This document shows, in pieces, positions 3,654-52,522 of a stretch of 53,098 bases of DNA; within the stretch, counting starts at the first letter, position 1, and each line of letters opens with the position of its first letter. The notes under the pieces were generated by a model, which had not been told where the DNA came from, made no database searches, and was given only the letters and a program-made list of their open reading frames with translations. The position numbers were made by a program, and so were the translations under genes. The DNA comes from Patescibacteria group bacterium UBA1370 (GTDB taxonomy: Bacteria; Patescibacteriota; Microgenomatia; UBA1400; PJMF01), in NCBI GenBank assembly GCA_002306315.1, contig DBRK01000035.1, forward strand, positions 1-53,098, in the 5' to 3' direction.

Positions 3654-4838
3654 ATGATCAAGATAGCTATTGACGGTAACGAGGCCAACATCAGCAATCG
3701 GGTAGGCAGCAATGTTTATGCGTTTGAGTTATTAAGAAGCCTGGAAAAACTGACCCACTCCAACCAAAATATCGATTTTACAGTTTTGCTCCGCCAGCAA
3801 CCAATTACCGACCTGCCCAAAGCCAGGTTGCGATGGAACTATCGGGTAGTTGGTCCCAGTCGGTTATGGACACAATGGGCATTGCCGCTGCATCTTTTCG
3901 CCTATCGTCACCAGTATGATCTCCTGTTCAGTCCCGGTCATTATGCGCCGCATACCTGTCCGGTTCCGTATGTGTCCTCGATCATGGACACTGCTTATTT
4001 AGATTTTCCTGATCATTTCCGCAAGACTGATTTGTTCCAACTGACTTTTTGGACTAAGAGAGCTGTAAAAAATGCTGCCAAAATCGTCGCCATCAGCGAG
4101 GCTACCAAAGCCGATATTGTGCGACATTACCATAAAAAACCACAAGATATTGTGGTTATATACCCTGCGCACACCGTGAAAAGAATAATTTTCACAGAAG
4201 CGGAAAAGAGTAAATTTTTTAAACAAAACCGCATCTCCGAACCCTATATTTTGTTTGTCGGCACCATTCAGCCCCGCAAGAATTTGACCACCCTTGTAGA
4301 AGCTTTTGAGATTTTTACCCGCATGGCCGCCAGCCGTGCCCTAAAAACCAGCCGCCGCACCAGCACCAAAACCTGTTCCGTAGCACCTAAGCTGGTGTTG
4401 GCTGGTAAAACCGGCTGGATGGCTGACAGCACCCTGGAACGAATTGATGCTTCGCCCCTGAAACAACGGATTATCCTGACCGGTTTCGTGACTGAGGCGC
4501 AAAAACAGATGCTCTACAAGAATGCTCTGGCTAGTGTTCTCATCGGCACCCACGAAGGCTTTGGCATTCCGCCGCTGGAATCGTTGGCGCACCGGACGAT
4601 CCCAGTGGTATCAAATACAACTAGTCTGCCAGAGGTGGTGGGAGATGCCGGTTTGCAGGTGGACCCCACCAATGCCCAAGCAGTTGCTGATGCTCTTTGG
4701 CAGGTTTATACTCTGACTGCCCGCGAACGGGCTCTCTACCGCCGCAAGGCCGCAGATCAAGTGAAAAGATTTTCTTGGGATAAGTCAGCGCGCATAGTTC
4801 TCAATACTCTTGAGAGTGTGGCTGCAGATCACAAATGA
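3654..4838 (+). CDS. glycosyltransferase family 4
   Basis: FVGTIQPRKN and HEGFGIPPLESLAHRTIPVVSN motifs; AAGGA Shine-Dalgarno upstream. Confidence 0.8.
   Translation: MIKIAIDGNEANISNRVGSNVYAFELLRSLEKLTHSNQNIDFTVLLRQQPITDLPKARLRWNYRVVGPSRLWTQWALPLHLFAYRHQYDLLFSPGHYAPHTCPVPYVSSIMDTAYLDFPDHFRKTDLFQLTFWTKRAVKNAAKIVAISEATKADIVRHYHKKPQDIVVIYPAHTVKRIIFTEAEKSKFFKQNRISEPYILFVGTIQPRKNLTTLVEAFEIFTRMAASRALKTSRRTSTKTCSVAPKLVLAGKTGWMADSTLERIDASPLKQRIILTGFVTEAQKQMLYKNALASVLIGTHEGFGIPPLESLAHRTIPVVSNTTSLPEVVGDAGLQVDPTNAQAVADALWQVYTLTARERALYRRKAADQVKRFSWDKSARIVLNTLESVAADHK
4176..4195. repeat. perfect palindrome GTGAAAA-gaataa-TTTTCAC (site A of a recurring motif), intragenic
   Basis: Read directly: 4176-4182 GTGAAAA and 4189-4195 TTTTCAC. 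The same arms occur at 12082, 41013 and 47120. Confidence 0.6.
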
Positions 4839-8681: not shown

Positions 8682-10394
8682 ATGCCCAAAAATCTAAAAA
8701 AAGCTTTAACTTGGTTAGATAATAATATTCTCTTGGTGTTGGGCGGTTTGTTGGTTGCGTTTATACCTTTGTATCCCAAGTTGCCGTTATTTGAGGCAAT
8801 CCCCGGCTATATAGTGAGGGTTAGGTTAGAAGACTTGGTTATTCTCGCCACTGCTTTAATCTGGTTTATACAGCTGCTACGTCGCAAAGTGTCATTCAAA
8901 ACACCTCTGACCCCGTTGATTATCGCCTACGCGGTGGTGGGCTTGCTTTCCACGCTTTCAGCAGTAGTAATCACCAAAACTGTCCCGGTCAGCCCGCTGC
9001 ATATCGGCAAAACTCTGCTGCATTATTTCCGATATCTGGAGTACTTCTCATTGTTTTTTATTCTGTCTTCAGCGGTCAAAAACCGCCGCGACTTGAAGGT
9101 GTTGCTGGTTGTCATGGCTCTGACCCTGGTGGGAGTAGGAATTTACGGTTTCGGCCAAAAATATTACTACTGGCCGGTGTACTCAACCATGAATCGGGAA
9201 TTCAGCAAAGGGGTGAGGTTGTATCTGACCGAGCACGCTCGGGTGCAATCGACCTTTGGTGGCCATTATGATCTAGCCGCCTATTTGGTCATTCTCTTGC
9301 CGCTGCTCTTGGCTTTGTATTACGGCTTAAAGAAAAAATCAGTGAAGTTTTTGGTTTTCGTTGCTTTCTTGCTGGGTTTGTGGTTGTTGGTCACTAGTGC
9401 TTCCCGAACTTCTTTTGCTGCTTTCTTTTTGGGAGCTCTGGCTGTTGTGCTGCTTTTTGCCTGGCAAAGAAAACGCTGGCTGGAGAGAATTGCCTTTACT
9501 GTCACCAGATATGGAGGATTATTGGCAATTTGTTTTCTAATGCTGGTTAGTTTTGGCGATGATATGTACGAACGCCTGTTGCAGGTGCTGGAAGGTTATC
9601 CGGCTGTTTACAAACCATACATGCAAGCAGCCAAGACTGTGAGCGGTACAGTCAATGAGCTGGCGCCGGTGATCAAAGAAATCCCATTCTTTACAGCAGA
9701 AAAACCAGAAAACGGTTTATCTACTGAGGACGCTGAAGTCCTGGTAGCTTCCGACCAGCGGCCAGTTGAGGAAAACCCCAAAGACTTGCCTAGCGACGTC
9801 TATGTGATTGTGCCGGATGTAAAAAAAGTGGCAACTATTTCTGCCACCGGCCAAATTGAAATTATCGAGGTGCAAACTGAGCGCACTTATTCACCGAATG
9901 CTCTAAGGTATGGGTTGTCGCTGGCAATCCGGCTGGATGAACTCTGGCCAAAAGCGCTGAAAGGCTTTTACCGCAATCCGGCGTTAGGCAGCGGTTATGC
10001 CACCCTAACCAAGGACTCAACCATCCACTTTACCGAGGCTGAAAGTACCGATAACAATTACTTGCGGGTATTAGGCGAGACAGGCTTGCTTGGCTTCCTC
10101 ACCTTTTATGGCACTATTGCTGCGGCTATGTATTGGGCGTACCGTCTTTACAAAAAGAACAAGAATAAAAACTTCCTCTACACCGCGCTGGCGGTCGGCT
10201 ACATTGGCGCCAGTGTGGCGCTGCTCTTCAATGCCACTTACATCGATGTTTATGCAGCTTCGAAGGTTGCCCTGACTTATTGGGCGCTGACTGGCATTGT
10301 TTTGGCTGTAGCGATGACAGAGTTGCCGGAGAGTCGGGAGTTCTTAGGCAAGTTCGATCTGGCTCAACTCAAAAAGAAATTATTAAAAAAATGA
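8682..10394 (+). CDS. O-antigen ligase/polymerase-like (Wzy_C domain) polytopic membrane protein
   Basis: About 12 hydrophobic segments, a Wzy_C-like TSASRTSFAAFFLGALAV segment and a large extracytoplasmic loop. AGGAG Shine-Dalgarno upstream. Confidence 0.6.
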   Translation: MPKNLKKALTWLDNNILLVLGGLLVAFIPLYPKLPLFEAIPGYIVRVRLEDLVILATALIWFIQLLRRKVSFKTPLTPLIIAYAVVGLLSTLSAVVITKTVPVSPLHIGKTLLHYFRYLEYFSLFFILSSAVKNRRDLKVLLVVMALTLVGVGIYGFGQKYYYWPVYSTMNREFSKGVRLYLTEHARVQSTFGGHYDLAAYLVILLPLLLALYYGLKKKSVKFLVFVAFLLGLWLLVTSASRTSFAAFFLGALAVVLLFAWQRKRWLERIAFTVTRYGGLLAICFLMLVSFGDDMYERLLQVLEGYPAVYKPYMQAAKTVSGTVNELAPVIKEIPFFTAEKPENGLSTEDAEVLVASDQRPVEENPKDLPSDVYVIVPDVKKVATISATGQIEIIEVQTERTYSPNALRYGLSLAIRLDELWPKALKGFYRNPALGSGYATLTKDSTIHFTEAESTDNNYLRVLGETGLLGFLTFYGTIAAAMYWAYRLYKKNKNKNFLYTALAVGYIGASVALLFNATYIDVYAASKVALTYWALTGIVLAVAMTELPESREFLGKFDLAQLKKKLLKK

Positions 10395-11860
10395 AAAAGT
10401 TTTTAGCCCAGTACGGCTTGATCTCACTGATCGTGGCGGCAGCATTTATTGTTAGGCTGTACCGTATTCACTACCCTTTGCTGGACTGGCATAGTTTCCG
10501 GCAGGCAGATACTGCTTCCGTAACTCGAGAATACGTAAAAAACGGCATTGATCTGTTCAGGCCAACTTATCATGACATCTCCAGCCACCAAAGCGGCCTG
10601 GATAATCCCAGCGGCTACCGGATGGTGGAATTTCCAATTATTAATGGCTTGACGGCGCTGATTTTGAGAACATTCCCGGCTTTGCCGTTGGTGCCGACCA
10701 TTCGTATGTTGTCCATCATCTTTTCTATGGGTACTTTATTGTCTATTTTTTGCTTGGCAAAATCTCTGTCAGGCAAAAAGGTTGCCCATCTAGCTACTCT
10801 AACTTTTGCTCTGCTGCCTTATTCGATTTACTACACCAGGACTATTTTGCCAGAGATACCGTTGATATTTTTCTCGACTTTTTCCTTGGCAGCTTTTGTT
10901 AGCTGGCTGCGAAATAATGACGGGCGATGGTATATCCTGTCGGTATTAAGCCTAGCCCTGGCATTCCTGCTAAAACCATTTGTCGGCTTTTTGGCTCCGG
11001 TATATTTAGTATTGGTTTGGCAAAAGCAGGGCAGAAGAGCCTTGTTCAATATCCGTTATTATCTCTACGTGCTTATTGCGGTAGCACCCTTGGTGGCCTG
11101 GAGATACTGGATTACTCAATTTCCAGAGGGCATTCCGGCCTCTAAATGGCTGTTAAATGGCAACGGCATTCGTCTGCGCCCCGCTTGGTTTAGATGGCTC
11201 GGATATGAGCGTCTCACCAAATTGATGCTGGGTTACACAGGCATCGTATTCATACCAGCTGCTTTTGATCGAGTTGCCAAAGACACCTGGGTTTACCTTT
11301 CGTGGTGGCTGGGAATTGGCTTATACTTCATCGTCATCGCTACAGGAAATGTTCAGCACGATTATTACCAGATCCTGGCTTTGCCAATCCTCAGCATCAC
11401 GGTTGGCAAAGGAGTGCTCAATGCATATGAAATTGTCAAAAACAACTGGGGAAAACTAAAGGACAACCTTAAAATATACGGCCATCCGCTTTCTTTGGTC
11501 ACAATAGCCTGCATCTATGCTGTCATGCTGATACTAGCCTGGCAGCAAGTTAAAGGCTTTTTCAATGTGAACAATTGGGAATATGTCAGGGCCGGACAAG
11601 TAGTCGCTCAACGCACACCAGAAGATGCCAAAATAATCGCCCCCCTGATGTCAAACACAGCGTTTCTCTTTCAAACTGAGCGCAAAGGTTGGCCGATCGG
11701 CGGGGATATTGAAGAAAAAATCGAAAAGGGTGCCACGCATTACGTCACCACCATCAGAGACAAGGAAGCGCAGGAACTGGCAAGAAAGTACTTAATCCTT
11801 GAGCAAACAGATGAATATTTGATCATTGATCTGACCAAGAGGCGAGAGGAAACACCATGA
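10391..11860 (+). CDS. GT-C fold membrane glycosyltransferase (ArnT/PMT family, GT39/GT83-like)
   Basis: MKKFLAQYGLISLIVAAAFIVRLYRIHYPLLDWHSFRQADTASVTREY is a typical first TM plus periplasmic loop for this family. ATG 10391 overlaps the upstream stop (ATGA). The track start at 10280 lies inside the upstream gene. Confidence 0.6.
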   Translation: MKKFLAQYGLISLIVAAAFIVRLYRIHYPLLDWHSFRQADTASVTREYVKNGIDLFRPTYHDISSHQSGLDNPSGYRMVEFPIINGLTALILRTFPALPLVPTIRMLSIIFSMGTLLSIFCLAKSLSGKKVAHLATLTFALLPYSIYYTRTILPEIPLIFFSTFSLAAFVSWLRNNDGRWYILSVLSLALAFLLKPFVGFLAPVYLVLVWQKQGRRALFNIRYYLYVLIAVAPLVAWRYWITQFPEGIPASKWLLNGNGIRLRPAWFRWLGYERLTKLMLGYTGIVFIPAAFDRVAKDTWVYLSWWLGIGLYFIVIATGNVQHDYYQILALPILSITVGKGVLNAYEIVKNNWGKLKDNLKIYGHPLSLVTIACIYAVMLILAWQQVKGFFNVNNWEYVRAGQVVAQRTPEDAKIIAPLMSNTAFLFQTERKGWPIGGDIEEKIEKGATHYVTTIRDKEAQELARKYLILEQTDEYLIIDLTKRREETP

Positions 11861-13047
11861 AAGTCCTGATGTTGACCCCCTACCTGCCATATCCTCTCTT
11901 GTCTGGTGGTCAGATCCGTACTTACAACCTGCTGAAAAAGCTTTCCAAGCATCACGAGATTACTCTCTTTGCTCTCATAAAGGAAGAGGAGGAGAAGCAA
12001 TATATTCCCGAGCTGGAAAAGTATTGCGCTTCTGTCAGGGTCTTTAAACGTTCCAGCAAACCTTTTACCTTGGGCAATATTGTGAAAACTGGTTTTTCAC
12101 GCTACCCATTTTTGGTGATGCGCAACTATGTGCCAGGAGCCGTCAGGGCAATTCGGGAGGAGTTGGACAAGGGAAAGTACGACCTCATTCACGCTGAAAC
12201 CTTTTACATGATGCCACACATCCCGGCCTCTCCAATCCCGGTGATTTTAGTTGAGCAAACAATTGAATACCTGGGATATGAAAGTTTTGCCTCAAGAGCT
12301 AATCTCCTGCTTAAACCTCTCCTTTACTATGACATCAAGAAAATCCGCCGTTGGGAGACTCATTACTGGAATCTGTGCCACACTCTGATTGCTATGAGTG
12401 AAGATGATCGCCGTTATTTGGCGGCTCGCGTCAATGACCCTGACAAAGTCAAAGTTGTCGAAAACGGTGTCGATACCGACTGGTTCATGCAAAAACAGCG
12501 CCAAGAAACAGACAAACCAACTCTGCTGTCCGTGGGTACTTTCAAATGGCTGCCCAACGTAGAAGCAGTTGACTTTTTAGTACAAAAAATCTGGGGATTG
12601 GTCAAAGAAAAACTTCCAGATGCCAGGCTGCTTATCGTCGGCAACGCCCCAACCAAAAAAGTTCTGGGCTACCAGAACTCCGACAGCAGTATTCAGGTTT
12701 TAGGCAGGGTTGATGACATTCGTGATTACTTTAGCCAAGCCCATGTCTTAGTGGCACCAGTATTTAGCGGCAAGGGCACTCGCTATAAGATACTGGAAGC
12801 TATGGCTTCAGGCACACCGGTTGTTGCCACCAGTGTGGCCGTGGAAGGCTTGGGTGTTAAAGGCGGCAAACATGTTTTGATCAGCGATACCGCCCAGGGA
12901 ATGGCAGACGCAATTGTGCAACTGATTAGCGACAGCAGCAAACGCCGTCAACTTGCGGAATCCGGACGTGAGTTTGTCCGCAAAAACTACGATTGGTCTC
13001 TGATTTCCAAAAAACTTGATACAATTTACCAGAGCATCAATCGCTAG
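11857..13047 (+). CDS. glycosyltransferase family 4
   Basis: MKVLMLTPYLPYPLLSGGQIR N-terminus and GTRYKILEAMASGTPVVAT C-terminal motif. Confidence 0.8.
   Translation: MKVLMLTPYLPYPLLSGGQIRTYNLLKKLSKHHEITLFALIKEEEEKQYIPELEKYCASVRVFKRSSKPFTLGNIVKTGFSRYPFLVMRNYVPGAVRAIREELDKGKYDLIHAETFYMMPHIPASPIPVILVEQTIEYLGYESFASRANLLLKPLLYYDIKKIRRWETHYWNLCHTLIAMSEDDRRYLAARVNDPDKVKVVENGVDTDWFMQKQRQETDKPTLLSVGTFKWLPNVEAVDFLVQKIWGLVKEKLPDARLLIVGNAPTKKVLGYQNSDSSIQVLGRVDDIRDYFSQAHVLVAPVFSGKGTRYKILEAMASGTPVVATSVAVEGLGVKGGKHVLISDTAQGMADAIVQLISDSSKRRQLAESGREFVRKNYDWSLISKKLDTIYQSINR
12082..12100. repeat. perfect palindrome GTGAAAA-ctggt-TTTTCAC (site B), intragenic
   Basis: Read directly: 12082-12088 GTGAAAA and 12094-12100 TTTTCAC. 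Confidence 0.6.
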
Positions 13048-17903: not shown

Positions 17904-17912
17904 TGGTATATT
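17904..17912 (+). promoter_or_regulatory. extended -10 TGgTATATT upstream of the sugar transferase gene
   Basis: Read directly. It is 27 nt before ATG 17940, and the short leader contains GTTTTCAC (17921-17928). Confidence 0.35.
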
Positions 17913-23861: not shown

Positions 23862-23880
23862 AAATGGGATAAAATGGGAA
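23862..23880 (+). promoter_or_regulatory. candidate MraZ operator: two direct AAATGGGA repeats with 10-bp periodicity
   Basis: AAATGGGAT-A-AAATGGGAA, between the candidate promoter and the mraZ ATG. E. coli MraZ binds TGGGN direct repeats spaced by 5 nt. Confidence 0.35.
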
Positions 23881-23892
23881 ATAAGCTTATAA

Positions 23893-24324
23893 ATGTTCAT
23901 CGGGAAATATTATCACAAGTTGGAAAGCAATCGACGGCTTTCCTTACCGAAAAGTTTCCGCGATGGACATAGCGCCTGGGTCATAACCCGAGGACTGGAC
24001 GGCAGCTTATTTCTCTATACCGCAGAGGACTTCGAAACGGAAATAGCCAACTTCGAAGCCCGCACCTTCACAAAAAAAACCAACCGCGACTTCATCCGGC
24101 TAATGACTAATGAGGCGCAAATGCTGCAGGTCGACAGAAGTGGCCGAGTACAACTGCCCGAGTACTTGGCAAATCTGGCTGGCTTAAATAAAGAAGTGGT
24201 TGTTGTCGGCTCCCTAAAAAGAATTGAGATCTGGGACCAACAACGCTACCACGCCTACGTGGACACAATAGAAAGCCAAGCCGAAGAGATCGCAGAACGA
24301 CTCGAGGAAGACAAGGATGAATAA
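23893..24324 (+). CDS. mraZ: transcriptional regulator MraZ
   Basis: MFIGKYYHKLESNRRLSLPKSFR and a second half with GRVQLPEYL (duplicated SpoVT/AbrB-like domains). Confidence 0.9.
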   Translation: MFIGKYYHKLESNRRLSLPKSFRDGHSAWVITRGLDGSLFLYTAEDFETEIANFEARTFTKKTNRDFIRLMTNEAQMLQVDRSGRVQLPEYLANLAGLNKEVVVVGSLKRIEIWDQQRYHAYVDTIESQAEEIAERLEEDKDE

Positions 24325-28608: not shown

Positions 28609-29616
28609 ATGAGCACACCTCAAACAGTGACTATGGGCGGCGGCACCGGCACATTCGCGGTCATCTCTGCCTTAAAAAAACTGCCAGTAAAAATTTCCAC
28701 AGTCATTGCGGTTTCTGATTCCGGCGGTTCGACCGGTAGAATCCGAGACGAGTTTGGTTTTCCCCCTGTCGGTGACTTGCGGCAATCCTTAGCTGCATTA
28801 GCTGAGCCGGAGAGCCAAGAATGGATTCGCAAAATTCTTCTTTATCGCTTTGATAAGGGAGAGGGATTGCGGGGTCATAACCTCGGCAACCTGATTCTGA
28901 CTGCGCTTCAGGATATGACAGAAGGCGACACCACTCGAGCACTAGAGATAGCCGAAAGCGTATTTGATCTGCAGGGCAAGGTCATTCCTGTAACAGCCGA
29001 AAATGTTGAACTGGTTATCTATTATGCCAACGGTACCAAGGTAGTTGGTGAACACATCCTGGATGAGACGGGTGATAATCCTAAAAAAGTTGCTAGGATT
29101 GAATTAACGCCGGCAGCTACACTCAATTCGGTGGCAGCGGACGCGTTGGCTAAAGCAAACCTGATTATCATTGGACCAGGCGACTACTATGCCAGCCTGA
29201 TGGCAACTCTAGTAGTAGAGGGAATTAGCGAGGTTTTTGCAAAAACTCAAGCCAAGATTGTCTACATCACCAACCTGATGACCAGAAGAACCCAAACACA
29301 TGGGATGACAGCTGCTGATCATCTCCGAGGCATTGAAAACCAGATTGGGAGAAAAGTGGATCGAATCCTCATCAACAATGAATTCATACCTGAGGAGATT
29401 ATCAATGCCTATGCTGCTGAGGACGAGTATCCAGTTGTTGATGACTTAACTAGTGATGAAAGGGTTTTACGTTTGCCGTTGATCAGGACTACAATAGTGC
29501 AAAAAGCTGCTGAGGACACTGCCTACAGGTCGCTTTTGCGTCATGATGAGGACAAGCTGCGAGCAGCGCTGCAACAGCTGCTGTCAGAAATAAAGGAAAG
29601 CCATGGAAATTCTTAA
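28609..29616 (+). CDS. yvcK: YvcK/GlmR-family protein (UPF0052, CofD-like fold)
   Basis: MGGGTGTFAVISALKK N-terminal glycine loop, VSDSGGSTGRIRDE, and DLRQSLAAL (the family DhRNCL-type motif). Confidence 0.75.
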   Translation: MSTPQTVTMGGGTGTFAVISALKKLPVKISTVIAVSDSGGSTGRIRDEFGFPPVGDLRQSLAALAEPESQEWIRKILLYRFDKGEGLRGHNLGNLILTALQDMTEGDTTRALEIAESVFDLQGKVIPVTAENVELVIYYANGTKVVGEHILDETGDNPKKVARIELTPAATLNSVAADALAKANLIIIGPGDYYASLMATLVVEGISEVFAKTQAKIVYITNLMTRRTQTHGMTAADHLRGIENQIGRKVDRILINNEFIPEEIINAYAAEDEYPVVDDLTSDERVLRLPLIRTTIVQKAAEDTAYRSLLRHDEDKLRAALQQLLSEIKESHGNS

Positions 29617-38868: not shown

Positions 38869-40197
38869 ATGGCACTTGTAAAACCTACCAATACCACCTT
38901 CGCGAAAATTAAAGTTATTGGTGTCGGTGGCGGTGGTGGCAACGCCGTCAACTCGATGATTGCCTCCAACAAAATCAACGGCGTTGAATTTATTGCCGTT
39001 AACACCGATGCCCAAGCTCTGCTGACTTCCCGAGCCGAAACCAAACTGCAGATCGGCAGCAATTTCACCAAAGGCCTCGGTTCCGGAGCGGATCCTGAAG
39101 TTGGCCGTACTGCCGCCGAGGAATCCTACGAAAAACTCCGCGACCTGCTTTTTGACACTGACATGGTATTTTTGACTGCCGGCATGGGCGGCGGCACCGG
39201 CACCGGTGCCTCACCCATCATCGCCGAGATTGCCAAAGAAACCGGCGCCCTGACCGTGGCAGTGGTCACCAAACCATTTGCCTTTGAGGGCATCCGGCGG
39301 ATGCAGACAGCTGAGGAAGGCATTGCCTTGCTCAAAGACAGCGTCGACACCCTGATTGTCATCCCCAATCAACGCCTCATGGAAGTCGTAGACAAGAAAA
39401 TGCCTTTCCTAGACGCCTTTAAGCTGGCGGATAATGTCCTCGGCCAAGGTGTCCAAGGCATTTCCGACTTGATCACTGTGCCCGGTTTAATCAATGTTGA
39501 CTTTGCCGACGTCAAAACCATCATGACCGAGTCTGGCTCAGCCCTGATGGGCATCGGCGAAGCCAGCGGCGAAAACCGCGCCGCCACAGCTGCCCGGATG
39601 GCAGTTTCTTCACCCCTGCTTGAGGTTTCTATCGATGGTGCAAAAGGCATCCTCTACAATATCATTGGCGGTCCAGACATGACCATGAGCGAGGTGTCTG
39701 ACGCTTCGGCGATTATTTCTCAAGCTGCCGACCCGGATGCCAACATTATCTTTGGGGCTACCATCAACGAAGAAATGGGTTCCAACATCAAAATCAGTGT
39801 CATTGCCACCGGGTTCGATGACCGGCAAATGGGTTATGGCGCCTCCACCAGGCCATTGTTCGGTGCCTATTCCCGCGAGTCGCAACTGAAACTCCGCAAC
39901 CAACAACGCCAGGAGGAGCGCCGCGCTGAAGAACAGCCTGCAGGTTCGCCCCTGATTGATAGGGCGCCCGGCAGCTTCACCCAACCCCTAACCACCAGTC
40001 AAATTCAAAGCACCACCCCCACGCAACCGTTTGTAAAATCCCAAGCGTTTGGTGATGATGTCAGCAACACCACCCCGGCAGCAGATGACATCGACGATGA
40101 TGAGGCCAGCACATCCGACAATGGCCATTCCGACATCAACCCTTCAGAGTTCGAGGATGAGTTCGAGATTCCGGCCTTCATGAGGAAACGGCGCTAA
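38869..40197 (+). CDS. ftsZ: cell division GTPase FtsZ
   Basis: [11 protein letters not shown], the tubulin signature GGTGTGA, a long low-complexity linker and a C-terminal peptide [12 protein letters not shown]. Confidence 0.95.
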
Positions 40198-40721
40198 TCT
40201 TTTCCAAGAATATTTACCCGCAGTCGATACAACCGATCCAAAAACTCTCTAAAACCGTACAGATCGCTGTAAGTCATACCCAGGCTGTTTTGGATGTCGA
40301 CAACTCTCCGGCTGATGCTTTCCAAGGCTTGTATATCACTTTTAGTTAATAATCCTTCTAGATAATTCCGTTCAATTTGAAGTAATGAACGGCCATCAAT
40401 TAAAAACTGCTGCATGATTAGATGCTTTCTCATACCCAGATATTTGTTAATGATTTGCTCAGACAACTCGGCAATTCTGATTTTTCCGGCAATAGCCAGC
40501 AGATAGAGTTTTGCACCCAACTCCTGTGTTTCCAGAGAATGTCTGCCTCTAAGCACACCAATGTCGGTGACAAGCAAGAGTTTATGCATTCTCTCAACAA
40601 TTTCATAAGCTTTTTGCAAAGAAATTCCTTCCTTGCCGAGAGCTTCTGCGGTGAAGGCTTCGTCAAGACTTTTTGGTGCCGGCTCTTTTTTCCTGAAAAA
40701 TCTTTTAAATACTTCTGACAT
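40194..40721 (-). CDS. hypothetical all-helical 175-aa protein, convergent with ftsZ
   Basis: The only long ORF here. I recognise no motif. Its stop codon overlaps the ftsZ stop (CTAA at 40194-40197). Confidence 0.5.
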
Positions 40722-40781
40722 CTTAATAATGCTTCCAAGCCAAAGTCACAGATTGATTATAACCTGTTATTCTCACTCCTA

Positions 40782-40790
40782 TGCTATAAT
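40782..40790 (+). promoter_or_regulatory. extended -10 TGcTATAAT driving the ileS T-box leader
   Basis: Read directly. Confidence 0.45.
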
Positions 40791-40796
40791 TAAGAG

Positions 40797-41004
40797 GCAA
40801 CAGCGTTTGAGCCAGGCAATCACCCGGCGAGCTGGCCGCAGAAATGCCGCCTAGGCAAAGTAGATCGGTCCGGGTAAGCCCGTAATAGCTGGAACGAAGC
40901 GCGGCAACGCAAATAGACTCACAGCCGCGGAAAAGAGGTGGTACCGCCGAAATGAAGGCCCTCTTGTGGACAGCACCAACAGCTGTTTGCAAGAGGGCTT
41001 TTTT
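40797..41004 (+). promoter_or_regulatory. T-box riboswitch leader (tRNA-Ile sensing, transcription attenuation type)
   Basis: AGAGGUGGUACCGCCG at 40934-40949 matches the T-box consensus. The antiterminator has a 7-nt UGGUACC bulge. A mutually exclusive terminator follows. There is a long Stem I-like hairpin at 40803-40902 with Ile codons in its internal loop. ileS lies downstream. Confidence 0.8.
40956..41004 (+). terminator. intrinsic terminator of the T-box leader
   Basis: AGGCCCTCTTG (40956-40966) pairs with CAAGAGGGCTT (40990-41000), with an inner ACAGC/GCTGT helix, followed by a TTTTTT run (40999-41004). Confidence 0.8.
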
Positions 41005-41010
41005 GAAATT

Positions 41011-41084
41011 CCGTGAAAACAACACATTTCACGGTGCCCGCCTGGTATTAGACGCGTGAAAACAGCGTGAAAAATCGTGAAAAG
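41011..41084 (+). repeat. cluster of five CGTGAAAA-type motif copies (one inverted pair plus three tandem direct copies at 10-11 bp spacing)
   Basis: CCGTGAAA(41011-18)-N8-TTTCACGG(41027-34), then CGTGAAAAC at 41055, CGTGAAAAA at 41066 and CGTGAAAAG at 41076. Read directly. Confidence 0.6.
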
Positions 41085-41094
41085 CAAAGGAAAA

Positions 41095-43983
41095 ATGAGT
41101 AAAGAACCCCTGCCAACCACCTTGGATTTTCCAGAGATGGAAAAGCAAGTGCTGATCTACTGGAAAGACACCAAAGCCTTCGAGCGCCAAGTAGAAATGC
41201 GGCCGGAAAATAAGCCTTATGTGTTTTACGACGGGCCGCCTTTTGCGACCGGCATGCCGCATTATGGCCATCTTCTAGGTTCTACCGCCAAGGATGTCAT
41301 TCCCCGTTATTGGGCGATGAAAGGCTACCGGGTGGAACGTGTCTGGGGTTGGGATTGCCACGGCTTGCCGATAGAAAACATGATTGAGCAGCAACTGCAG
41401 ATCAAGGGCGGCAAAAAAGGCATCGAGGAGATGGGCATCGCCCGCTTTAACGCTGCCTGCCGCGCCGAAGTCCTGCGGCTTGACCAAGAATGGGAAACCA
41501 TTATCGACCGACTCGGCCGCTGGGTGGATTTCGCCAATAATTACAAAACCATGGACACCTCTTTTATGGAATCGGTGTGGTGGGGTTTTTCACAGCTGCA
41601 TGAGAATGGTCTGATCTATGAAGGCCGCAAAGTGGTTATGTACTGCCCGCGCTGTGCCACGCCGCTTTCTAACTTTGAGATAGCCATGGACAACTCCTAT
41701 GAGATGGTTGAAGATCACTCAATTTTTGTGAAATTCCCTGTTGATGGCAAGGCTGATGAGTATCTCTTGGCCTGGACAACTACTCCCTGGACTCTGCCTG
41801 GCAACGTTGGTCTGGCGGTTGATCCTCAAGCTGACTATGTCAAAGTCAGGGCCGGGGATGAGCATCTCTGGCTCGCCGAGGCTTTGCTGGAAAAGGTGAT
41901 GGGTGACCGAGAATATCAGGCCGTGGAAACGGTTAAGGGAGAAGCACTGGTTGGCACCCGTTACACGCCGCTTTACCCGTATATGGAGGAGCACCGGACC
42001 GAAAATGCCTGGATGGTAATGCCCGGGGATTTCGTCAGCATGGAAGACGGCACCGGGGTAGTGCACACCGCTGCTTTGTTTGGCGAGGACGACTATGACT
42101 TAGCCTTGGAATACAAGCTACCGCTGGTACCGACACTTGACGACGGCGGCAAATTTCTGCCCTTTGTTGAGGTGGCTGCCGGTTTGTTTTACAAAAAAGC
42201 AGAAGATACCATCAACACCGACCTGCAAGCACGTGGCTTGGTGTTCAAGCTGGAAAAAATTTATCACTCTTATCCTTTCTGCTACCGCTGTTCGACACCG
42301 CTTTATTACAACGCGGTTCCGGCTTGGTTTATCAATGTTCAAAAATTGAAGCCTGATTTGATTGCCCAAAACGAAAATATCAACTGGTATCCCGAACATC
42401 TCAAATACGGACGTTTTGGCAAAGGCTTGGAGTCGGCGCCGGACTGGAACATTTCCCGTTCCCGCTATTGGGGCACACCGATGCCGGTGTGGCGGCATGA
42501 TGAAAGCGGCCGCTACCGAGTAATTGGTTCACGGGACGAGCTGCGGCAGTGGGCGGTCAATCCGGGCGATGTTGGTAAACTAGAAGATATCCACCGCGAA
42601 TTTATCGACGATATCGAAGTCTGGGTGGATGATGAACGAACCATGAAAGGCCGCCGTATTCCGGAGGTTTTTGATTGCTGGGTGGAGTCCGGTTCGATGC
42701 CATTTGCCCAACATCACTATCCGTTTGAGAATAAGGAAAAATTTGAGCGGTCGTATCCGGCTCAGTTTGTCAGCGAGTACATCGCGCAGACGCGGGCGTG
42801 GTTTTACACTATGCACGTGATGTCAGTGGGAATTTTTGGCAGCAATGCGGTAGAAAATACCCTAACCACCGGCACAATCATGGCTGAGGACGGCAGCAAG
42901 ATGAGCAAGTCCAAGAAAAACTTTCCCGATCCAGTGGCCTTGATGGACAAATACGGCGTCGACAGCTTGCGGCTTTACATGATGAGTTCGCCGGTGATGA
43001 AATCCGAAAATATCAACTTTAACGAAGCCGAGGTCGGCGAAATCCGCAAGCGGGTATTCAACATTTGGTACAACATGTATGCCTTTTACCGGATGTATGC
43101 CGGCGAACGGGCGGTGCTTGTTGGTGAAGTGCCCCAGCCCCACGATGTGATGGACAGGTGGGTGATGAGCCGGGTGCAAAGCCTAATTCAATCAGTCACT
43201 GAAGCCATGGATGGTTATAACGTCGTCAAGGCTTCCCGAGCGCTGATGGCGGCCGTTGATGAGGTCTCTACCTGGTATTTGCGCCGCAGCCGAGACCGGT
43301 TGCGCGGCGTCAATAGCGGTGAAAGTCAGGGCGAAGCGCGCGGGGATGACGCAGCAGTGGCAGTTTTTGGTTATGTGCTGGTGACTTTAGCTCAATTGTT
43401 TGCGCCGTTTGCGCCATTCTTTACCGAGTGGTTGTTCCAACATCTGGTCGATCCGAGCAAGAGTGTGCATCACACCGACTGGCCGGTCGCCCATCCTGAG
43501 CTCATCGACACCGATCTGGAAACACAAATGGAAACTATCCGTCGGACAGTGGAACGCACTCATGCTGCCCGCAAAGAAGCGGGCATCAAGGTTCGTCAAC
43601 CGTTGGCTAGGGTGAGTGTGTTTACCAACGCGTCCAAGCCGGCCGAGGAACTGCTGGCGGTGCTGTTGGATGAAGTGAATGTCAAGGAGGCCGTTTGGCA
43701 GGATAAGCAGGTCTCTGCGGAAAGCGACAGCCAATCCGAAACCGACAGTGCTTTCCTGGACGTCCAACTCGACACCAACATCACTCCAGAATTGCAAGCA
43801 GAAGGCGAAGCTCGCGAACTCATCCGGGAAATTCAAAAACTCAGAAAAAAAGCCGGCCTGACAATCAATGACAGGGTGGTCGTGCAAGCTCCGGCTTGGC
43901 CACAGTCTTGGCAAACAGAAATCGAAAACCGGACGAATTCCAGCCTAGTGAGAGGCGAGCAGCTGAACCTGGAGAAGGCTTGA
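41095..43983 (+). CDS. ileS: isoleucine--tRNA ligase, type 2 (eukaryote-like) form
   Basis: YDGPPFATGMPHYGHLL (HIGH region) and SKMSKSKKN (KMSKS). The C-terminus has no Cys-rich zinc domain. ATG 41095 is preceded by AAGGA; GTG 41077 is an in-frame alternative. Confidence 0.9.
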   Translation: MSKEPLPTTLDFPEMEKQVLIYWKDTKAFERQVEMRPENKPYVFYDGPPFATGMPHYGHLLGSTAKDVIPRYWAMKGYRVERVWGWDCHGLPIENMIEQQLQIKGGKKGIEEMGIARFNAACRAEVLRLDQEWETIIDRLGRWVDFANNYKTMDTSFMESVWWGFSQLHENGLIYEGRKVVMYCPRCATPLSNFEIAMDNSYEMVEDHSIFVKFPVDGKADEYLLAWTTTPWTLPGNVGLAVDPQADYVKVRAGDEHLWLAEALLEKVMGDREYQAVETVKGEALVGTRYTPLYPYMEEHRTENAWMVMPGDFVSMEDGTGVVHTAALFGEDDYDLALEYKLPLVPTLDDGGKFLPFVEVAAGLFYKKAEDTINTDLQARGLVFKLEKIYHSYPFCYRCSTPLYYNAVPAWFINVQKLKPDLIAQNENINWYPEHLKYGRFGKGLESAPDWNISRSRYWGTPMPVWRHDESGRYRVIGSRDELRQWAVNPGDVGKLEDIHREFIDDIEVWVDDERTMKGRRIPEVFDCWVESGSMPFAQHHYPFENKEKFERSYPAQFVSEYIAQTRAWFYTMHVMSVGIFGSNAVENTLTTGTIMAEDGSKMSKSKKNFPDPVALMDKYGVDSLRLYMMSSPVMKSENINFNEAEVGEIRKRVFNIWYNMYAFYRMYAGERAVLVGEVPQPHDVMDRWVMSRVQSLIQSVTEAMDGYNVVKASRALMAAVDEVSTWYLRRSRDRLRGVNSGESQGEARGDDAAVAVFGYVLVTLAQLFAPFAPFFTEWLFQHLVDPSKSVHHTDWPVAHPELIDTDLETQMETIRRTVERTHAARKEAGIKVRQPLARVSVFTNASKPAEELLAVLLDEVNVKEAVWQDKQVSAESDSQSETDSAFLDVQLDTNITPELQAEGEARELIREIQKLRKKAGLTINDRVVVQAPAWPQSWQTEIENRTNSSLVRGEQLNLEKA

Positions 43984-47100: not shown

Positions 47101-47119
47101 GATTCTCCTTTTTCAGGCC

Positions 47120-47138
47120 GTGAAAACTCGATTTCCAC
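47120..47138. repeat. near-palindrome GTGAAAA-ctcga-TTTcCAC (site D), 39 bp upstream of the parB ATG
   Basis: Read directly, with one mismatch to the TTTTCAC arm. The 10-mer CCGTGAAAAC (47118-47127) is identical to 41011-41020. Confidence 0.5.
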
Positions 47139-47158
47139 AGTACAAATGGTGGACATTT

Positions 47159-47167
47159 TGATATACT
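47159..47167 (+). promoter_or_regulatory. extended -10 TGaTATACT, 9 nt before ATG 47177
   Basis: Read directly. Confidence 0.4.
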
Positions 47168-47176
47168 GGGAAACAT

Positions 47177-48016
47177 ATGGCAGACTCACAAAGCATCCAA
47201 CTACTTGACGTAACTGTTCTACAACCAAATCCCTTCCAACCCCGCAACAAAATCATGAAAGAGGATCTGGAAGAATTGTCTGAGTCTATCAGACGCTATG
47301 GAATTCTCGAACCTTTGTTAATCGCTCACACCCCAGCCGGCTACCAAATAATCGCTGGAGAACGCCGCTGGCGTGCTGCTCAGCTTGCCGGTTTAACCGA
47401 AATACCCGCTATTATCCGCAAATGTTCGCCGCGGGAAATGCTGGAAATGGCGTTGATTGAAAATGTCCAGCGTGTCGATCTCAGCCCACTGGAACGCGCT
47501 CATTCCTTCCAACAACTGCACCGCGAATTTGGATTCAGCGTTTCGGAAATTGCCGACAAAATCAGCAAGTCGTCGGCTTTCGTCAGCAACACCATGCGCT
47601 TGCTGACCTTGCCGGATGCGATCAAAGACGGTTTGGTCGGCGGGTTAATCACCGAAGGCCACGCCCGGGCTCTGGCTGGTCTTGAAGATAAGCAGGCTAT
47701 GATTGAAGCTTACAAACAAATTCTCCGGGAAAATGCTTCAGTTAGAAGAGCAGAGATGATAGTCAGAAAGTTTAAACATGCGCTCGGCCAGAAAAGGACT
47801 GCAACCCAGCGCATGGTTTATCAGGCCGATGACAAAGAGATCAAGGCTTGGGAAGCACGCCTGAAAAAACTTATACAAGTGAGGACAAAAATCCGCCTCA
47901 GCCGCTCCGACCGCCAAACCAGAATTACCATCACCCTGCATGGCCGTCCGGAAGAAACCCAGTCAGACCTGGAAAAAATTATCCGCCTCACCGGTGGAAC
48001 GGCAACAATCAGCTAA
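47177..48016 (+). CDS. parB: chromosome partitioning protein ParB (Spo0J family)
   Basis: LQPNPFQPR box, the GERRWRAA arginine patch (CTP-binding motif) and an HTH region SVSEIADKISKSSAFVSNTMRLL. No parA is adjacent. Confidence 0.85.
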   Translation: MADSQSIQLLDVTVLQPNPFQPRNKIMKEDLEELSESIRRYGILEPLLIAHTPAGYQIIAGERRWRAAQLAGLTEIPAIIRKCSPREMLEMALIENVQRVDLSPLERAHSFQQLHREFGFSVSEIADKISKSSAFVSNTMRLLTLPDAIKDGLVGGLITEGHARALAGLEDKQAMIEAYKQILRENASVRRAEMIVRKFKHALGQKRTATQRMVYQADDKEIKAWEARLKKLIQVRTKIRLSRSDRQTRITITLHGRPEETQSDLEKIIRLTGGTATIS

Positions 48017-52513: not shown

Positions 52514-52522
52514 AGTATATCA
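52514..52522 (-). promoter_or_regulatory. extended -10 TGaTATACT (minus strand), 6 nt before ATG at 52507 (leaderless geometry)
   Basis: The minus strand reads TGATATACT-aaatat-ATG, the same 9-mer as the parB element. Confidence 0.4.

Follow-up and report, generated by a model that had tools for sequence, protein, structure and literature searches.

The DNA analyzed here, referred to below as the window, is the 53,098-nucleotide (nt) contig DBRK01000035.1 of Patescibacteria group bacterium UBA1370 (assembly GCA_002306315.1), and the element under study is an array of five short DNA boxes in the leader of ileS, the gene for isoleucyl-tRNA synthetase (IleRS). The host is an uncultured member of the Patescibacteria (candidate phyla radiation [CPR] lineage, Microgenomates-like), the IleRS of its nearest species representatives is 69% identical, and the DNA sequencing runs containing the organism are from sludge, digester, and groundwater metagenomes; no RNA run containing it was found. 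The gene order begins with a glycosyltransferase cluster, ruvCAB, recO, a class II aminoacyl-tRNA synthetase gene, the mraZ-mraW-dcw cluster, ftsA, and ftsZ and continues with a gene of unknown function on the minus strand, ileS, ftsW/rodA, rplU, a methyltransferase gene, rpmA, parB, and lepB (minus strand), the genes being co-oriented on the plus strand through the array region. We tentatively interpret the array as a lineage-specific cluster of half-parS-like boxes, the most likely binder of which would be the orphan ParB encoded 6 kb downstream.

The ileS leader and its box array

The features of the leader, in the order of their positions, are as follows.

40782 to 40790, plus strand: extended -10 element TGCTATAAT of the ileS T-box leader promoter, belonging to the TGnTATAnT class, which is nearly confined to intergenic DNA in the window
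40797 to 40966, plus strand: T-box (Rfam RF00230) whose stem I is very short, with AUC as specifier context and AGAGGTGGTACCGCC as core
40955 to 41007, plus strand: T-box terminator hairpin with arms at 40955-40974 and 40982-41001, followed by a T-run (inverted-repeat scan and sequence)
41011 to 41034, no strand: everted palindrome CCGTGAAAACAACACATTTCACGG, made up of box 1 (plus) and the inverted box (exact-match and inverted-repeat scans)
41043 to 41051, plus strand: -10-like word TGGTATTAG, probably not a functional promoter, with G at -7 (comparison with TGnTATAnT sites)
41055 to 41083, plus strand: three tandem CGTGAAAA boxes at 41055, 41066, and 41076, in phase with box 1 (exact-match and direct-repeat scans)
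41095 to 43983, plus strand: ileS, isoleucyl-tRNA synthetase of 962 amino acids (aa), ATG at 41095 (gene annotation)

The leader transcript probably starts near 40797, where the T-box match also begins. The RF00230 match scored 27.8 bits (E = 2.4e-4), below the gathering score of 93; the T-box is nevertheless genuine despite this weak score, the same architecture being present in relatives. The ultrashort stem I is common to these relatives, some of which have the core variant GGTTGGTACC, and at such a score the T-box would be overlooked by standard annotation. The terminator was overlooked by a simple terminator scan because its stem has an internal loop, and a promoter and terminator scan of positions 40600 to 41200 gave no match, the scan rules being too strict for this organism. 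ATG 41095 is preceded by an AAGGA Shine-Dalgarno sequence, and the in-frame GTG at 41077 is not. In an RNAfold prediction for the full-length leader, 40803-40817 (GCGUUUGAGCCAGGC) paired with 41040-41056 (GCCUGGUAUUAGACGC), the GC-rich stretch that separates the palindrome from the tandem boxes.

Past the TTTTTT of the terminator, the array reads GAAATT-CCGTGAAAACAACACATTTCACGG-TGCCCGCCTGGTATTAGACG-CGTGAAAACAG-CGTGAAAAAT-CGTGAAAAG-CAAAGGAAAAATG. Four exact matches to CGTGAAAA are present on the plus strand of this post-terminator leader, the first at 41012 and the others in the tandem, while a single inverted box, CGTGAAAT, occupies 41026-41033 on the minus strand. The everted pair has arms that are complementary at 8/8 positions, CCGTGAAA (41011-41018) and TTTCACGG (41027-41034), separated by 8 nt. 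The plus-strand boxes start 43, 11, and 10 bp apart, and all four are in phase at 10.6 to 10.7 bp per turn. The first-pass annotation of this DNA had reported five copies, an inverted pair, and tandem spacings together with the GTG and ATG positions, and every one of its coordinates was borne out by the sequence matches.

When both strands of the window were counted, CGTGAAAA was found exactly 8 times compared with 2.87 expected, and the window-corrected chance of four copies within 72 bp was approximately 3e-8. Among the four plus-strand boxes, 8/8 core columns are invariant whereas 3/3 following columns vary (Fisher p = 0.006), and the unit length varies as well, being either 10 or 11. Invariant cores with varying flanks speak against a tandem duplication in neutral decay: slippage would have duplicated flanks along with cores, and neutral changes would have struck the cores as well. 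The cores of the array accordingly look selected.

In approximately 25 related T-box leaders, 20 to 38 nt separate the terminator T-run from the start codon, compared with 90 nt in the window, and the array was absent from these orthologous leaders. Since the related leaders are short and lack the array, the roughly 60 extra nt represent a lineage-specific gain. The array also lies outside the T-box architecture, the Rfam match ending at 40966, and an Rfam search of the window and the leader returned only the weak T-box and a tRNA, with the array unmatched. These findings agree with the earlier proposal that the T-box model does not explain the array. Judged by its statistics and distribution, the five-box array is a real, nonrandom, lineage-specific set of DNA boxes.

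Thirteen near-identical contigs of the species (99.3 to 99.99% identity) carry an identical array wherever it is covered, a degree of identity that gives no power to detect selection on it. The 24-bp palindrome was absent from viral contigs, and there was accordingly no sign of a phage or mobile origin. Divergent from the leader, between ftsZ and ileS, all strains encode a 175-aa helical protein (40194-40721, minus strand) for which no Pfam or NCBIfam match and no obvious DNA-binding motif were found.

Everted palindromes and boxes around parB

Besides the one in the ileS leader, three everted palindromes of the same box are present in the window, one of them at the promoter of parB.

4174 to 4197, no strand: everted palindrome CCGTGAAAAGAATAATTTTCACAG, inside a GT4 glycosyltransferase gene (3654-4838; pair scan)
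12080 to 12102, no strand: everted palindrome TTGTGAAAACTGGTTTTTCACGC, inside a second GT4 gene (11857-13047; pair scan)
47118 to 47141, no strand: everted palindrome CCGTGAAAACTCGATTTCCACAG, between the rpmA terminator and the parB promoter (pair scan)
47159 to 47167, plus strand: parB extended -10 element TGATATACT, 9 nt before the ATG, of the TGnTATAnT class; the same promoter type is found at the parB genes of relatives
47177 to 48016, plus strand: parB, 279 aa, with ParB_N and HTH_ParB domains and an intact GERRWRAA cytidine triphosphate (CTP) motif (domain search and alignment)

The four palindromes are 21 to 24 bp long and conform to the consensus YGTGAAAA-N5-6-TTTYCACR. With one mismatch or fewer allowed, GTGAAAA-N5-6-TTTTCAC was found 4 times in the window compared with 0.2 expected, the maximum in 200 Markov-3 simulations being 2, and GTGAAA ranked top among all 4096 hexamers for such everted pairs. 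The two palindromes within glycosyltransferase genes do not occupy homologous positions of the proteins; three other strains have the same arms at the 4174 site, and its spacer carries an A-to-G change in one strain. Another 16 kb of this genome contained no everted palindrome, and in relatives such palindromes were at background level only, apart from orthologous coding positions. The four span 43 kb ending at parB, with 2/4 intragenic and one at the parB promoter, a pattern that is typical of parS sites and not of operators.

The synteny from ileS to rpmA-parB is conserved in relatives, and single boxes were concentrated at their parB genes. The rpmA-parB spacers of 31 relatives contain 20 copies of TTTTCAC/GTGAAAA in 2752 nt, against an expectation of 1.15 based on the remaining intergenic DNA of these loci (P about 2e-18, a value that ignores phylogeny, there being about nine independent lineages). 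Nearly all truly intergenic copies in the relatives fall in these spacers. They vary in copy number and orientation, examples being the 10-bp tandem pair TTTTCACGGATTTTCACG and also CGTGAAAATTCCTCGTGAAAAA, and are situated at or upstream of the -35 position of the conserved extended -10 parB promoter, on either strand, which implies that they act in DNA rather than in RNA. In the window, the parB -10 element is so close to the ATG as to imply a near-leaderless mRNA. Motif clusters within coding regions of relatives were rejected as sites; they reflect Phe-His/Phe-Thr-rich membrane proteins and conserved codons of the methyltransferase gene and rpmA. No parA gene was found in the approximately 69 kb of this genome seen around parB.

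Likeness to parS and candidate binders

The invariant cores, variable spacers, phasing, palindromes, and parB boxes are best fitted by a helically phased array of half-sites for a DNA-binding protein. This is what the first-pass annotation had suggested, and its mention of ParB and of a nucleation site has become the best lead, given that CGTGAAA is the core of parS. Of the outcomes that the same annotation had regarded as speaking against it, a common word without positional bias is not the pattern observed, and absence of the array from orthologous ileS loci is. Its interpretation as a whole is partly supported.

The canonical site, parS (TGTTNCACGTGAAACA), has the same half-site core as the boxes (CGTGAAA/TTTCACG, with the central CG), and CGTGAAAA agrees with the parS arm CGTGAAAC at 7/8 positions, central CG included. 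With its flank, the box arm is (G/T/C)TTTTCACG, one T longer than GTTTCACG, and the window arms GTTTTCAC, TTTTTCAC, CTTTTCAC, ATTTCAC, and ATTTCCAC either match the half-parS heptamer at 6/7 positions or are 1-nt expansions of it. Like the boxes, parS sites occur as several copies within tens of kilobases of parB, in genes and between them, with one at the parB promoter. No canonical 16-bp parS was found in the window with 3 or fewer mismatches, nor was one found in the 69 kb with 3 or fewer mismatches or with 4 or fewer when the core was kept.

Two relatives have parS-like DNA in the ileS leader. In the first (L075; JBGTEY010000013; 60% IleRS identity), a perfect parS, TGTTTCACGTGAAACA, is located at 9898-9913, between the T-box terminator and the ileS ATG and hence at the same leader position as the array; this leader is also expanded, to approximately 105 nt. 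In the second (L030:9815-9861), the T-box core of the ileS leader is closely preceded by four TTTCAC/GTGAAA copies (TTTCACG..ATTTCACATTTCACGCGTGAAAACA), including TTTCAC-GC-GTGAAA, a parS with a 2-bp expanded center, in place of stem III. With that of the window, three lineages have thus placed parS-like DNA in the ileS leader independently. A further relative (L020) has an unrelated perfect tandem repeat, ACCAAAT (TACCAAA) four times and then an A-run, approximately 80 nt upstream of the ileS ATG (near 9900-9975), and its occurrence in the same post-terminator position indicates that this spot of the leader tolerates repeat expansion.

Single arms are known as targets of ParB. In Pseudomonas aeruginosa and several other species, ParB binds single half-parS heptamers (GTTCCAC/GTTTCAC) genome-wide and independently of dimerization, and in a proposed model one ParB dimer bridges two half-sites (PMC10419367; PMC7022226). 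These half-sites resemble the boxes in being single arms located both in genes and between them, and their proposed role is to retain or bridge ParB on the nucleoid; they differ in being scattered single copies beside strong full parS sites, whereas here ordered arrays and pairs of fixed spacing are present and no full parS was found in the 69 kb. Sites of KorB and plasmid ParB proteins are similar in that ParB-family sites lie at promoters, that of their own operon included, and repress transcription. KorB sites are, however, 13-bp palindromes (TTTAGCSGCTAAA) and KorB works with KorA, and here there is no such partner and no plasmid context.

The window ParB was aligned to Caulobacter ParB (6T1F) and its DNA contacts were assigned from the map of Jalal et al. 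2020 (PMC7383237), according to which guanine 1 of the half-site is read by R173, a residue reported to be absolutely conserved among ParB orthologs. K171, S172, N178, G201, and R204 are the same in the window protein, while Q162 is replaced by Asp, G170 by Ser, and R173 by Ser. The R173-equivalent residue is never Arg in 36 relatives and is hypervariable (V, G, L, T, Q, S, I, E, A, P, K, D). The absence of R173 would fit a half-site with an unspecified first position, nTTTCAC. A literature search returned no work on Patescibacteria dealing with parS or ParB, and the 8-mer as a query gave primers only.

We infer the identity of the binder, its mode of binding, and any effect on ileS from this pattern. 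Each box, (C)GTGAAAA or its complement TTTTCAC(G), would be one arm of parS (TGTTTCAC/GTGAAACA), contacted by one ParB helix-turn-helix, and the first arm position, readable by the missing arginine, would be left unspecified. ParB dimers, joined by their C-terminal domains, or higher oligomers could then bind along one helix face, covering the everted pair together with the three tandem boxes in phase, and occupancy of several boxes would give avidity without a canonical 16-bp parS. The ileS cluster and the three other palindromes within 43 kb may together form a ParB nucleation or retention site near parB, the palindrome at the parB promoter serving as an autoregulatory operator. Because the array is part of the transcribed DNA that separates the T-box terminator from the start codon, its occupation could secondarily roadblock ileS read-through.

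A broader proposal, that Microgenomates-like ParB proteins have lost Arg173, have ceased to depend on the universal 16-bp parS, and use flexible single-arm architectures (everted pairs with a fixed 5-6-bp spacing, one-turn tandems) both as centromere or loading sites and as their own operator, with the ileS leader as a recurrent host, is conceivable but rather doubtful. In genomes so compact, sizeable intergenic regions are few, and the leader, being one of them, would be a recurrent landing place.

Several observations weigh against assigning the array to ParB. The boxes are everted with a 5-6-bp spacer or in tandem at 10-11 bp, in contrast to parS, and no abutted 16-bp palindrome is formed; to our knowledge, CTP-dependent clamp loading is known only for the abutted palindrome. 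Direct repeats spaced by one turn are more characteristic of OmpR/PhoB-type regulators, MraZ, or DnaA. The arms differ from parS by the extra T (compare GTTTTCAC with the heptamer GTTTCAC), and the cognate ParB differs by lacking the Arg173 that reads G1, but the ParB of the relative with the perfect parS in its ileS leader also lacks R173, so that loss of this residue does not by itself imply a new specificity. The two closest sampled relatives (L010 and L049) have neither boxes at parB nor an ileS array, and some of the boxes upstream of parB could represent -35-like hexamers instead of operators (TTCACG with a 15-17-nt spacer), in addition to the phylogenetic dependence within the enrichment at parB. 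A canonical parS may also exist outside the 69 kb seen.

As the main alternative, the array and palindromes could be operators of another regulator that also controls parB, either of the OmpR/PhoB type, a dimeric helix-turn-helix protein, or DnaA on relaxed boxes, in which case the bound leader would add T-box-independent control of ileS by roadblock or occlusion. We consider this somewhat unlikely. Direct repeats phased at 10-11 bp with invariant cores are the form classically taken by arrays of winged-helix response regulators, MraZ, and DnaA, and the parB-promoter boxes overlap or adjoin the -35 region as operators do; but 2/4 of the palindromes are intragenic, which is unusual for operators, and the word is the parS core and tracks parB, so that ParB requires one fewer assumption. 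The tandem boxes satisfy the spacing of OmpR/PhoB-type sites, whereas the everted pairs do not fit head-to-tail binding, and no cognate regulator of this type was identified in the 69 kb. Half-sites of the actinobacterial regulators PhoP and MtrA are similar to arms ending in TCACAG, a resemblance that serves as a lead only.

Among the individual regulators, MraZ was rejected for the array. MraZ operators share with it at least three direct repeats at one-turn spacing with a GTG core, and the window contains an mraZ gene (23893-24324). Directly before this gene, however, a 10-bp direct repeat with the typical look of an MraZ operator, AAATGGGATA/AAATGGGAAA (together AAATGGGATAAAATGGGAAA, 23862-23881), contains AAATGGGA twice and thus a TGGGA core, not GTGAAAA, and MraZ sites are not known as everted palindromes. 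DnaA is a minor part of this alternative. Clusters of DnaA boxes (TTWTNCACA) are similar in their T-rich core ending in TCAC and in forming phased arrays, and TTTTTCACG is a one-mismatch box, but the five boxes have 1, 2, 2, 2, and 3 mismatches to the relaxed consensus, leaving 4/5 with two or three. No dnaA or dnaN gene was found in any locus, the genes are uniformly on the plus strand, and neither an AT-rich unwinding element nor a switch in gene orientation is present here; an origin (oriC) at the array was accordingly rejected.

That the array is functionless, a by-product of slippage or insertion in an A-rich, poorly constrained leader, with the palindromes and the parS likeness coincidental, appears improbable. 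It is evidently young, being absent from all sampled orthologous leaders, the unrelated repeat at the same place in the relative mentioned above shows that the spot tolerates slippage, and the strains are too similar to show purifying selection. A metagenome-wide scan for three copies of GTGAAAA-N3-4 returned unrelated perfect microsatellites and a few iteron-like arrays (L114, L164, and L205) among the matches listed; GTGAAAA-type 10-11-bp tandem repeats were common as microsatellites among them, and the scan was uninformative on this particular array. Four identical 8/8 cores with every flanking column and the unit length differing are not expected of such a by-product, nor are four everted palindromes where 0.2 are expected or a motif enriched at parB across the clade.

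An RNA element in the 5' untranslated region (UTR), also raised in the first-pass annotation, would consist of a hairpin (CCGUGAAA/UUUCACGG) and three single-stranded CGUGAAAA repeats bound by an RNA-binding protein that recognizes repeats, or of an A-rich translation enhancer or stabilizer of ileS read-through transcripts. All four perfect cores are on the sense strand, the lone antisense copy pairs with the first, and the array lies in the transcribed leader, A-rich and shortly before the Shine-Dalgarno sequence. The segment 41003-41110 nonetheless has an ordinary folding energy (z = -0.99, with 36/200 shuffles folding as well), the Shine-Dalgarno sequence is not sequestered, and the region has no Rfam family match. 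The boxes of relatives, located upstream of the parB -10 element on either strand, are accordingly not in RNA, and the palindrome at 47118 lies between a terminator and a promoter. We therefore regard such an element as quite improbable.

The further idea that TGGTATTAG is a T-box-bypassing promoter with a start near 41058, controlled by the flanking boxes, is very hard to credit, for although it shares TGGTAT with the genuine extended -10 promoters at 17904 and 18599 and has the palindrome on one side and the tandem boxes on the other, a position open to repression or activation by a regulator, it ends in G where 7/7 intergenic TGnTATAnT sites have T at -7 (6/8 plus-strand matches are intergenic, plus one on the minus strand), it has no -35 element, and the 20-38-nt UTRs of relatives leave no room for it.

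Neighboring features and implications

The intergenic TGnTATAnT sites are at 17904, 18599, 20610, 40782, 45155, and 47159 on the plus strand and at 52514 on the minus strand. Some of them end 8 to 10 nt before start codons (18617, 20627, and 47177), suggesting near-leaderless mRNAs. Within the dcw cluster, a CofD/YvcK-family gene (28609-29616) is situated between two Mur ligase genes. Just past the right end of the window is the site of a strain-variable insert (L092:12679-14162, compared with L090 and L093), which carries two unannotated genes (237 and 208 aa) between flavodoxin and LemA genes. The iteron-resembling arrays in unrelated metagenome contigs (L114:2440-2500, L164, and L205) are imperfect 11-bp arrays of CCGTGAAAA-like units.

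The site parS is among the most conserved cis-elements of bacteria, and R173 of ParB has been described as invariant. If ParB is the binder, a whole CPR clade in which R173 is missing and arrays of arms alone accompany parB would demonstrate that both the ParB-DNA interface and the architecture of the centromere can be rebuilt. It would be the first noncanonical chromosomal parS architecture to be described and the first cis-element assigned in CPR chromosome organization, and it would supply annotators with a motif for finding ParB sites in CPR genomes. For organisms that are unculturable, it would also offer a concrete and cheap in vitro test with recombinant ParB and duplexes of 22 to 90 bp. 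Should the binder be another regulator, the array would mark a rare testable transcription factor regulon in a phylum almost without characterized regulation. If ParB also impedes ileS read-through, chromosome organization would be coupled to an essential, T-box-controlled aminoacyl-tRNA synthetase.

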